Below are positions 2,940 to 50,530 of a stretch of 64,000 bases of DNA, piece by piece (position 1 is the first letter of the stretch; each line of letters begins with the position of its first letter). The position numbers and the translations under genes are program-made. The stretch lies in the NCBI RefSeq assembly GCF_056746865.1, contig NZ_CM163382.1; one strand, 5' to 3'. The notes below the pieces were generated by a model, which worked only from the letters and a program-made list of their open reading frames with translations, searched no databases and had not been told where the DNA came from.

Positions 2940-5900
2940 ATGACTACACGCTATTTTTCGTCACTTATTGAACAATCGTTGTCTCGTTCAACTGAAGCAA
3001 CGCTCAGTATCATGGGCGTTACCAACCCGCAGCTGCGTGAACATCTCGCGCAACAAATGGGGGCTGATTGTGGGAAACCGGGCTCATTCCTTGCTTCTCC
3101 GGTATTCCAGCAAATGTTTGGCTGGAAGGAGTCAAACCACACGATGCGCAGCCTGACGGAAGGCAACGCATTGTTGAGCAAAGCAGTGGTTGATTCACTG
3201 GATGATCAGAATAATGGCCGGTACCGGTTTGGTGCTGACTGGAGGCCTTTTACGCACCAGTTAGCCAGTTGGAAAGCTTTGCTGGAAAAGAAACATTCAG
3301 TGGTGGTAACCAGTGGTACGGGTTCAGGTAAAACGGAATGTTTTATGGTACCGGTGCTGGAAGATCTTTACCGGGAACTGCATGAAAATGGCAACAATCC
3401 GTTGGTCGGTGTCCGAGCCCTTTTTCTCTATCCATTGAACGCCCTGATTAATTCACAGCGCGAGCGTCTGGATGCCTGGACGCGTGGTTTTGGTACAGGG
3501 ATCCGCTACTGCCTTTACAACGGCAACACCGAAAACCTACACGCTTCGGTAAAAAGCGAACAGGCAAAAAGGCCGAATGAGGTGCTCTCGCGCGAAAAAA
3601 TGCGTGAAGAACCTGCGCCGATTCTGGTGACCAACGGCACGATGCTGGAATATATGATGGTTCGCCAGGTCGACGCCCCGATTATCCAGCAATCTAAAGC
3701 ACAAAAATCACTACGCTGGATTGTACTGGATGAAGCGCATACCTATGTAGGGTCGCAGGCCGCTGAACTGGCGCTCCAGCTGCGTCGTGTGATGACCGCG
3801 TTTGGCGTGACACCAGATGACGTGCGCTTTGTCGCGACCTCTGCGACCATTGCCGGCAGCGACGCTGAAAAGCAGCTGAAAAAATTTCTCTCTGAATTAT
3901 CCGGTATCCCGCAGGAGCGCATCGATGTTCTGGACGGAAGTCGGGTGATTCCTGAACTGGAACCATCCAAAAACGTTTCTGTTCCGTTAGACGAGATAGA
4001 GCAAATACCTGATCTGGATCTAAGAGATAAAAATGATAATAAAATTAAAGGGATAAGTCCTGAGCGCTTTTATGCGCTTACGCATTCCCCCGAAGCGCGT
4101 TACATACGTGAGATGTTGGTCAAACAGCCCAATCCGATGAAGCTGGATGAGATAACAGAGCGGTTACACGTGCTGACAAAACAGCATTACAGCCAGCAGG
4201 AAGTACTGCGTTGGATCGATGTCTGTTCAGGGACTCAACCTAATGCAAAGGATCCCGCATTTCTTAAAGTCAGGGCGCATATCTTCCAGCGTAATACCCA
4301 GGGAATATGGGCTTGTGTTGATAAAGATTGCAGATTAAAGCACGGTACACCGCTCGACAAAGGCTGGCCCTTTGGCTATGTGTATGTGAACCAGCGACAA
4401 AATTGTGACTGTGGAAGCCCTGTATACGAAGTTGCATTCTGTAATGATTGTAATGAGCCTCATCTTCTGGCACGGGACAAAAAGGGCAAACTAGTCCAGT
4501 GGGAAAATAAAGGTGGCGATGAATTCTCTTTGCAGGATGAAGTACCTGTTGAACATGACGCTACAGAAGAAAAAGTCGAAAAAGAGAACAGTTTTCAGCC
4601 TCCGTTGATTATTGCCGCAGGAGAGACCAGCGAGGCAGGTTATACCCTACAACGCCTCGACCGTCAGACGCGCCGTATTGGCGTTATTAACAATGACAGC
4701 ATTCCGCTGATTATTAATGATATTGAACAGGTTTGTAGTGCCAGTGGCTGTGGCTACAGAGGCATGAGTGGGAAACAGCCCTTCCGGCGTGCACTATTAG
4801 GTGGGCCATTTTACGTTACTAATATCGTGCCCACCGTTCTAGAGTATTGTCAGGACTTTACCAGTGATGAAGGCAAAGAGGGCGTCGGACCAGATTCGTT
4901 GCCAGGACGAGGTCGTCGACTCATCACCTTTACAGACAGTCGACAAGGGACAGCCCGAATGGCGGTGCGTATGCAGCAAGAAGCAGAACGCAGTCGCTTA
5001 CGCGGAAGCGTAGTCGAAATTCTCAGCTGGCATCAAAGGACGCAAACGTCTACAGCGCCGAATGCCAATGCCGATCTGGAAAAATTAGCGGCCAGGGCGA
5101 AGCAAGCCCGTGAGCAGGCAGAAGAATATCGAAGCTGGGGAATGCCAGACCAGGCGAAATTGTCACAAGCACAGGCTGAACAGCTTGAACAGGCTTATCA
5201 GGCTGCAACCGGTGGGAAAGCTGCGACTATCCTGGTATCCCGAACCTGGACGGAGATGGTTAACGAGCTTAAAGAGAGAGCCGATATCCGCGGGCCGGTT
5301 CTGCAATATAACCATTATCTTAAGCCTGAAGTGTTTAATGAAAACGGCGGCCCCCTTAAGCTTTCTGAAATGTTGTTGTTCCGGGAATTCATGCGTCGCC
5401 CTAAACGGACTAACAGCCTGGAAACACAGGGGCTGGTTCAGGTTGGTTACCAGGGGCTGGAGAAAATACATAAGAGCCCCTTGCACTGGCAGGAAAAAGG
5501 ATTAACGCTGGATGACTGGCGCGATTTTCTCAAGGTTACGTTGGATCATTACGTTCGCGAGAGCAACTTCACACAGCTGGATGATGAGCTGAAAAACTGG
5601 ATTGGTAGCCGTTTTTCATCAAAATTCGTCCGTAACCCGGAATCAAAAGATCCTGAAGATAATCAGAACAGACGCTGGCCTCAAATTCGTAATGGCAACG
5701 TATCCCATCGTTTAGCGAAGTTGCTGATGCTGGGGGCTGGATTCAAAACCGTCAATGCGGCAACTATTGATATTATCAATACATGGCTGAAAGAAGCATG
5801 GGCCCAACTTACCGGACCGCTTGCAGTACTGAAACCCGATGGCAACCGTTTTTATTTACCGAAAGAGCATATGACTTTTTCTTTAATCACGGATGCCTGG

Positions 5901-49554: not shown

Positions 49555-49791
49555 ATGTTGCAACGTACGCTGGGCAGTGGCTGGGGAGTGTTGCTGCCGG
49601 GATTGCTGATTGCAGGGCTGATGTATGCGGATTTATCGCCGGATCAGTGGCGGATTGTCATTCTGATGGGATTAATATTGACGCCGGTGATGCTGTATCA
49701 CAAACAGTTGCGGCATTACGTTTTGCTGCCATCGTGCCTGGCGCTTATTGCTGGCATCATGCTGATGATAATGAATTTGAATCAGGGATGA
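49555..49791 (+). CDS. yjjZ: YjjZ, small Fur-regulated membrane protein
   Basis: 78 aa MLQRTLGSGWGVLLPGLLIAGLMYADLSPDQWRIVILMGLIL.. Confidence 0.75.
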   Translation: MLQRTLGSGWGVLLPGLLIAGLMYADLSPDQWRIVILMGLILTPVMLYHKQLRHYVLLPSCLALIAGIMLMIMNLNQG

Positions 49792-49829
49792 AAAATCAGG
49801 GAAGAAACAAGAAAGGAAGTAAAGATAAT

Positions 49830-49916
49830 TGGTGCGAGGGGGGGGACTTGAACCCCCACGTCCGTAAGGACACTAACACCTGAAGCTAGCGCGTCTACCA
49901 ATTCCGCCACCTTCGC
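49830..49916 (-). tRNA. leuV: tRNA-Leu(CAG)
   Basis: 87-nt reverse complement of GCGAAGGTGGCGGAATTGGTAGACGCGCTAGCTTCAGGTGTTAGTGTCCTTACGGACGTGGGGGTTCAAGTCCCCCCCCTCGCACCA; symbol assigned by operon order. Confidence 0.9.
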
Positions 49917-49950
49917 ACAGTCATCTTACTTTTTTTGATATCGCCTCGTT

Positions 49951-50037
49951 TGGTGCGAGGGGGGGGACTTGAACCCCCACGTCCGTAAGAACACTAACAC
50001 CTGAAGCTAGCGCGTCTACCAATTCCGCCACCTTCGC
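49951..50037 (-). tRNA. leuP: tRNA-Leu(CAG), variable-arm variant (one substitution relative to its neighbours)
   Basis: Same 87-nt gene with taagaacact instead of taaggacact (plus strand). Confidence 0.88.
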
Positions 50038-50065
50038 CCAGTGCGAGCAATATCAACGTGGTTTT

Positions 50066-50152
50066 TGGTGCGAGGGGGGGGACTTGAACCCCCACGTCCG
50101 TAAGGACACTAACACCTGAAGCTAGCGCGTCTACCAATTCCGCCACCTTCGC
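50066..50152 (-). tRNA. leuQ: tRNA-Leu(CAG)
   Basis: Third identical-length copy; first gene of the leuQPV operon on the minus strand. Confidence 0.9.
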
Positions 50153-50269
50153 ATACCATCAATTCTTAAAAAGAATTGCTACCACGGAGGCGCATTCTAG
50201 TGGTTTTCAGCTTTTCGTCAATAGTTAATTATCGCCGGAGGTGTAATTGCTGGAAAAATGGCCATCAGG

Positions 50270-50530
<261 letters not shown>

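Follow-up and report, generated by a model that had tools for sequence, protein, structure and literature searches.

Within the 64,000-nucleotide stretch of DNA analysed here (the window), three copies of a leucine tRNA gene stand in tandem, and the middle copy departs from its two neighbors by a single base in the variable arm. This raises the question of what the base represents: a recent mutation or an assembly error, a sign of decay of the middle gene, a form of the tRNA that is kept by selection, or the ordinary sequence of a known gene.

The tRNA array and its surroundings

In the entire 64-kb window ARAGORN predicted exactly three tRNA genes. All of them encode tRNA-Leu(CAG), lie on the minus strand and are 87 nucleotides in length. 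The tRNA-Leu(CAG) reads the codon CUG. Following the K-12 annotation, the genes are transcribed in the order leuQ (50066-50152), leuP (49951-50037) and leuV (49830-49916), the reading order on the plus strand being leuV, leuP, leuQ. The spacer between leuQ and leuP comprises 28 nucleotides (50038-50065) and that between leuP and leuV 34 nucleotides (49917-49950). The CCA end is encoded in each gene, and all three copies score 48.5 bits against the Rfam tRNA model RF00005, for which the gathering score is 29. The description given in the initial annotation, namely three tandem tRNA-Leu(CAG) genes of 87 nucleotides with spacers of 34 and 28 nucleotides, was thus confirmed by ARAGORN, Rfam and the sequence itself. 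Two mechanically called open reading frames of 50 and 78 codons, at 49994-50146 on the minus strand and 49647-49883 on the plus strand, respectively, overlap the tRNA genes and are almost certainly not genes.

The segment from 49799 to 50235, which takes in the entire array with its spacers as well as leader and promoter, is identical to E. coli K-12 MG1655 with zero differences, and the flanking genes differ by approximately 2%. The array hence corresponds to the K-12 leuQPV operon (leuQ b4370, leuP b4369, leuV b4368; NC_000913.3 4606079-4606401, minus strand) in its genes, spacers, promoter and leader. This identity extends to leuQ (NC_000913.3 4606315-4606401) and to leuP, including the T at base 48. 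A one-base difference in the variable arm between leuP and both leuQ and leuV has been stated before (PMC12472396), and in a tRNA sequencing preprint leuP forms a read class apart from that of leuQ, leuT and leuV (10.1101/2020.02.21.958157). Both the operon and the leuP base are already known, and the apparent variant is the reference allele. The neighborhood is likewise that of K-12, with rsmC upstream and yjjZ and fhuF downstream, and the same neighbors are annotated in FDAARGOS_497.

A consensus scan returned as its best match a sigma-70 promoter at 50194-50221 on the minus strand (TTGACG, 16 nucleotides, TAGAAT; 10 of 12 positions), in a region identical to K-12, which we take to be the published leuV/leuQPV promoter. 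Next comes the G+C-rich stretch GCGCCTCC (50186-50193, minus strand), presumably the stringent-control discriminator. With the start point placed by means of the -10 element, the predicted 5′ leader spans 50153-50185 on the minus strand, and leuQ begins about 33 nucleotides past this start. The leader harbors a perfect 8-bp inverted repeat, CAATTCTT-TTT-AAGAATTG (50160-50178, minus strand), that ends 7 nucleotides before leuQ.

The single sigma-70 promoter would give rise to one transcript comprising all three tRNAs. Judging from published work, RNase P would then separate the tRNAs, exonucleases would trim their 3′-ends, and transcription would terminate in a Rho-dependent manner. The leuQ leuP leuV transcript has been reported to be cut apart by RNase P independently of RNase E, and its Rho-dependent terminator region to be removed by PNPase and RNase II (PMC2190699). 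Past leuV, no intrinsic terminator was found on the minus strand, in agreement with the published Rho-dependent end. With regard to gene names, Table 1 of PMC2190699 lists AACGAG as the post-CCA sequence of leuQ and AAAACC as that of leuP, which is the opposite of the assignment under RefSeq names. Under the latter, AAAACC (region 50057-50065) follows the first gene, leuQ, and AACGAG (region 49942-49950) the middle gene, leuP.

Between rsmC and the operon promoter lies a BIME/REP cluster (50270-50524, plus strand) of about 2.5 tandem units of 111 nucleotides, delimited by the repeat families D1/D2 and by inverted repeats. The units are direct repeats with inverted arms of 20-27 nucleotides and are intergenic, and the cluster thus resembles BIME/REP elements, in which tandem units carry inverted REP pairs. 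Moreover, the REP-derived Rfam family naRNA4 (RF02564) yields two full-length matches above the gathering score, at 50292-50374 (75.2 bits) and 50403-50485 (65.1 bits). Since the cluster, which is found at the 3′-end of rsmC, lies upstream of the operon promoter, it should fall outside the tRNA operon transcript. It had been described as following the array, which is true of the plus strand, whereas in terms of transcription it precedes the promoter. Its proposed role as a hotspot for rearrangement received modest support from K-12, where the gap between leuQ and rsmC measures 267 nucleotides as compared to 378 nucleotides in the window, that is, one 111-nucleotide unit fewer; the changes in copy number of the array itself, however, are attributed to recombination between the tRNA repeats and not to the BIMEs.

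The leuP base in the cloverleaf

Alignment of the three copies revealed one variable column, tRNA base 48, which is C in leuQ, T in leuP and C in leuV. The sole differing base is located at position 49990 of the window, inside the leuP tRNA, where it reads A on the plus strand (taagAacact in leuP, taagGacact in the other copies) and U in the tRNA. The cloverleaf pairs base 48 with G55. Both the substitution reported in the initial annotation and its predicted consequence, the conversion of a C-G pair of the variable-arm stem to a U-G wobble, are therefore borne out to the base.

The three copies fold as class II tRNA-Leu. ARAGORN and Rfam recover acceptor, D, anticodon and T arms, the anticodon cag is found at position 35 within a 7-nucleotide loop in all three, and the variable region consists of 15 nucleotides with a stem-loop of its own. 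In linear numbering of the standard cloverleaf, the acceptor stem is formed by bases 1-7 with 77-83, the D stem by 10-12 with 24-26, the anticodon stem by 28-32 with 40-44, the 4-bp variable-arm stem by 46-49 with 54-57, and the T stem by 60-64 with 72-76. By our own count, which assumes one extra base in the D loop (20a) and places U59 (linear) at Sprinzl position 48, base 48 would correspond to the variable-arm position e12.

This structure was assessed on 20 distinct Enterobacterales Leu(CAG) sequences. The cells of the cloverleaf were paired in 98% of cases, compared to 46-65% in slid controls, and those of the variable-arm stem in 100%. The pair 48-55 occurs as CG in 13 and as UG in 7 of the 20 sequences and is broken in none. 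The adjacent pair 49-54 shows the same two states (CG in 16/20, UG in 4/20), and pair 47-56 displays one compensatory change from UA to CG. Nearest-neighbor energies of the variable-arm hairpin amount to -5.2 kcal/mol for the C form and -2.3 kcal/mol for the U form; the latter is thus weaker by about 2.9 kcal/mol and is still predicted to form. These values refer to a fixed cloverleaf; unconstrained minimum-free-energy folding of single tRNAs was discarded, as it returned a cloverleaf for neither allele.

A further peculiarity concerns the acceptor stem. In Enterobacteriaceae, tRNA bases 5 and 79 form an A5·C mismatch (window positions 50148/50074, 50033/49959 and 49912/49838), which has been described as unique to the CAG isoacceptor (PMC4105747). 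In Morganellaceae it is replaced by G5·U in both the C48 and the U48 form, so that the pair is non-Watson-Crick in both families.

Occurrence of the U allele in E. coli and other genera

For a census of the leuP base, three probes were compared with 5,426 complete E. coli genomes. The first, 80 nucleotides carrying the U allele together with 20 nucleotides of the leuP-leuV spacer, matched 4,970 genomes, 4,115 of them at 100%. Taken alone this probe cannot separate a C in leuP from a U accompanied by a spacer variant, given that low-complexity masking of a G-run limits seeding, and because of this ambiguity two C-allele probes anchored in different spacers were added. The same 80 nucleotides with C matched 5,425 genomes, with 3,847 covered to at least 80%; a probe of 86 nucleotides with C, anchored in the leuQ-leuP spacer, likewise matched 5,425 genomes, with 4,976 covered to at least 80% and 4,866 at 95-99% identity. 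The full-length matches at 100%, approximately 81 and 110 for the two C probes, respectively, were obtained by subtraction and presuppose an identity of 99% or more for every partial best match.

On this basis, U occupies the leuP slot in about 4,870-4,890 of the 5,426 genomes (~90%), arrays with C in all three copies (C-C-C) account for about 80-110 (1.5-2%), and in about 455 (~8%) the leuP junctions are absent and the array is reduced to one or two genes. The comparison with other E. coli leuP alleles that the initial annotation had proposed thus identifies U as the majority state and C as the rare one.

The C-C-C arrays are found in unrelated lineages of E. coli, including O55:H7, ETEC H10407 and dog, swine and other isolates; among the arrays sampled, those of O55:H7 RM12579 and strain 300709 are of this type. 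Of the reduced arrays, those of the O157:H7-type strain 272 and of Ec-050-T5-ESBL retain one gene with the 5′ flank of leuQ and the 3′ flank of leuV, and those of strain 2022E04-002 and O157:H7 TR01 retain two genes, the second being a leuP/leuV hybrid. Both sampled O157:H7-type strains carry collapsed arrays, in which one or two of the three genes of the leuQPV locus have been lost. C-C-C and collapsed arrays are the expected products of gene conversion and unequal recombination between the 87-nucleotide repeats, and the junctions of the collapsed arrays show such recombination. Some of the C-C-C calls may, in turn, be polishing artefacts, as in the MG1655 assembly CP025268 a C in leuP coincides with a run of nine C residues in leuV. 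Generally, the run of eight C residues that spans the T stem and the acceptor stem appears with 7, 9, 10 or more C residues in some public assemblies, including that of strain 300709. These off-length runs are probably homopolymer errors, and they alter the called length of the tRNA.

Beyond E. coli, a scan for an exact 22-mer with the U allele, using one genome per species (GTDB), returned at least 120 stretches, a figure that refers to U-bearing arrays only. Among the matches listed were Escherichia (coli, albertii, whittamii), Salmonella, Citrobacter, Klebsiella, Raoultella, Enterobacter, Kosakonia, Phytobacter, Pseudocitrobacter, Franconibacter, Xenorhabdus, Photorhabdus, Proteus, Morganella and others. 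An array of the order C-U-C downstream of rsmC is present in at least 14 genera of Enterobacteriaceae. Counting the three-gene rsmC-linked arrays among the matches listed, at least 33 are C-U-C, at least 7 bear U in the third copy only, and at least one is U-U-C. At the rsmC-linked locus Xenorhabdus has U-C pairs, Photorhabdus two copies with U in the first and a different variable arm in the second, and Proteus and Morganella C-U pairs, indicating that the U form also exists in Morganellaceae at this locus. Wherever flanks were present, rsmC was located upstream in the same direction, with RsmC identity down to 55%, and in Enterobacteriaceae yjjZ was located downstream. Between genera, spacers and leader are 74-100% identical, and the last 45 nucleotides upstream of leuQ, comprising the leader and part of the promoter, 80-100%.

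The U form also occurs at a second, different locus outside the window, in the leuT slot of argX-hisR-leuT-proM, in many Enterobacterales, and the leuT of E. coli carries C. In K-12, leuT encodes the same isoacceptor with a sequence equal to that of leuQ and leuV, and processing of the leuT operon depends on RNase E (PMC2190699). U in the leuT slot was seen at about 40 loci among the matches listed, including those of Escherichia whittamii, Klebsiella pneumoniae, Enterobacter, Citrobacter, Pantoea and Morganella. For three near-complete records, those of E. cloacae DSM 26481, of E. hormaechei DSM 14563 and of K. pneumoniae ATCC 13883 (5.28-Mb scaffold), the only listed exact match is in the leuT slot, and their rsmC-linked arrays are probably devoid of the exact U 22-mer.

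Function and maintenance of the U form

We then asked how the U form is likely to behave. The leuP gene would provide a second isodecoder, in which a U·G pair takes the place of C-G in the variable-arm stem. The variable arm does not serve as a leucine identity element in E. coli; leucylation shows no correlation with the sequence or folding of the arm, and a tRNA-Leu without variable arm is still charged (PMC9976931). The identity elements of E. coli LeuRS are instead the discriminator A73, the A15-U48 pair and G18G19 (PMC9976931). They are all present in the sequence, as A84 preceding CCA, A15, G18, G19 and U59 (linear), the latter corresponding to Sprinzl 48. Because LeuRS makes no use of the variable arm and pairing is kept, it is most likely that the U form is nearly neutral and does not differ from the C form in charging or use. 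Two observations speak against near-neutrality, however: in a stem of 4 bp a difference of 2.9 kcal/mol is not trivial, and U is kept in the same slot of the array across many genera, which could mean selection for U.

It is conceivable, though unlikely, that U at e12 is kept by selection, be it through stability or turnover of the tRNA, through its behavior under leucine starvation, through the pattern of fragments or through ordered processing of the middle gene. Such a view would account for the constancy of the C-U-C order, found in at least 33 arrays of many genera with few cases of U in the flanking copies, and for the rarity of C-C-C in E. coli even though it has arisen in unrelated lineages. 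In addition, the copies of Morganellaceae have co-evolved, exchanging A5·C for G5·U in both forms, yet they kept the C/U difference. Against this stands, above all, the slow evolution of the whole operon: with spacers and leader 74-100% identical between genera, one kept base needs no special selection. Moreover, the scan could find only arrays that still contain U; successful natural strains, such as the sampled O157:H7-type strains, lack U at the locus; the slot is not fixed, as U resides in the leuT slot in many genera and C in the leuT of E. coli; and charging does not require the variable arm (PMC9976931). We also considered the argument that retention of U proves selection on the grounds that neutral sites would be saturated. 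It was rejected, as the spacers and the leader are themselves conserved. For these reasons, that is, the slowly evolving spacers and leader, the restriction of the scan to U and the presence of U in the leuT slot alone in several near-complete records, we do not take the retention of U as proof of selection.

Ordered processing of the middle gene deserves separate consideration, as the spacers bracketing leuP are complementary. On the minus strand, 50044-50054 in the leuQ-leuP spacer and 49937-49948 in the leuP-leuV spacer can form the 5′ and 3′ arms of a leader-trailer helix of 11 pairs with one bulge. The helix is predicted by RNAfold from the window sequence, and RNAalifold recovers 9 pairs on 32 distinct arrays. 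Across these arrays, which stem from many genera, its cells are 95% paired, compared to 20-54% in slid controls. Covariation is modest: one pair appears as UG, CG and UA, a double change is seen at each of two pairs, and the covariation score is reached in 3 of 500 shuffles. A weaker leader-trailer pairing is predicted around the other copies as well. We examined whether the helix is tied to the U allele, and this was rejected: it follows the middle position, in C-C-U arrays too, and the first copy in Xenorhabdus-type arrays. If the U form is selectively maintained, the helix would serve as a processing signal governing the order or the rate of RNase P cleavage in this operon, whose processing is independent of RNase E. 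The combined reading, in which the U(e12) form is a selectively maintained Enterobacterales isodecoder with a function of its own and the helix around leuP an RNase P processing signal, appears to us slightly more doubtful still than selection as such.

Far less probable is the reading that leuP is in decay or little used and is turning into a pseudogene. Its variable-arm stem is indeed the weaker one, but outside this base the gene matches the neighboring copies at 100% and is conserved across genera, and its Rfam score equals theirs. Furthermore, leuP is counted as a read class of its own in tRNA sequencing of E. coli (10.1101/2020.02.21.958157), and precursors of the operon transcript that contain leuP (QP) have been detected by Northern blots (PMC2190699).

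A recent strain-private mutation or a sequencing or assembly error, the latter of which the initial annotation had named as a possible flaw, can practically be dismissed: although other assemblies show likely errors in the array, with C-runs of 7, 9 or more in place of the expected 8 (strain 300709, CP025268), leuP of K-12 MG1655 carries this base too, the leuP-specific 80-nucleotide probe is matched at 100% by more than 4,100 genomes (4,115), and the base recurs in at least 14 other genera.

Taken together, we hold it to be highly probable that the locus is the canonical E. coli leuQ-leuP-leuV operon, that U at base 48 is the normal, ancestral sequence of leuP and that the resulting tRNA is a near-neutral isodecoder, a judgment that applies to these three statements jointly.

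The one-base difference is accordingly accurate but ordinary, being the reference state of a textbook operon. It is nevertheless of practical relevance, as read mapping can tell leuP from leuQ, leuV and leuT by this single base, and arrays that lack the leuP U, being C-C-C or collapsed to one or two genes, can be either real recombination products or polishing artefacts. Finally, there is natural variation among E. coli lineages in how many gene copies encode the most-used leucine tRNA, which may bear on work on tRNA gene dosage.
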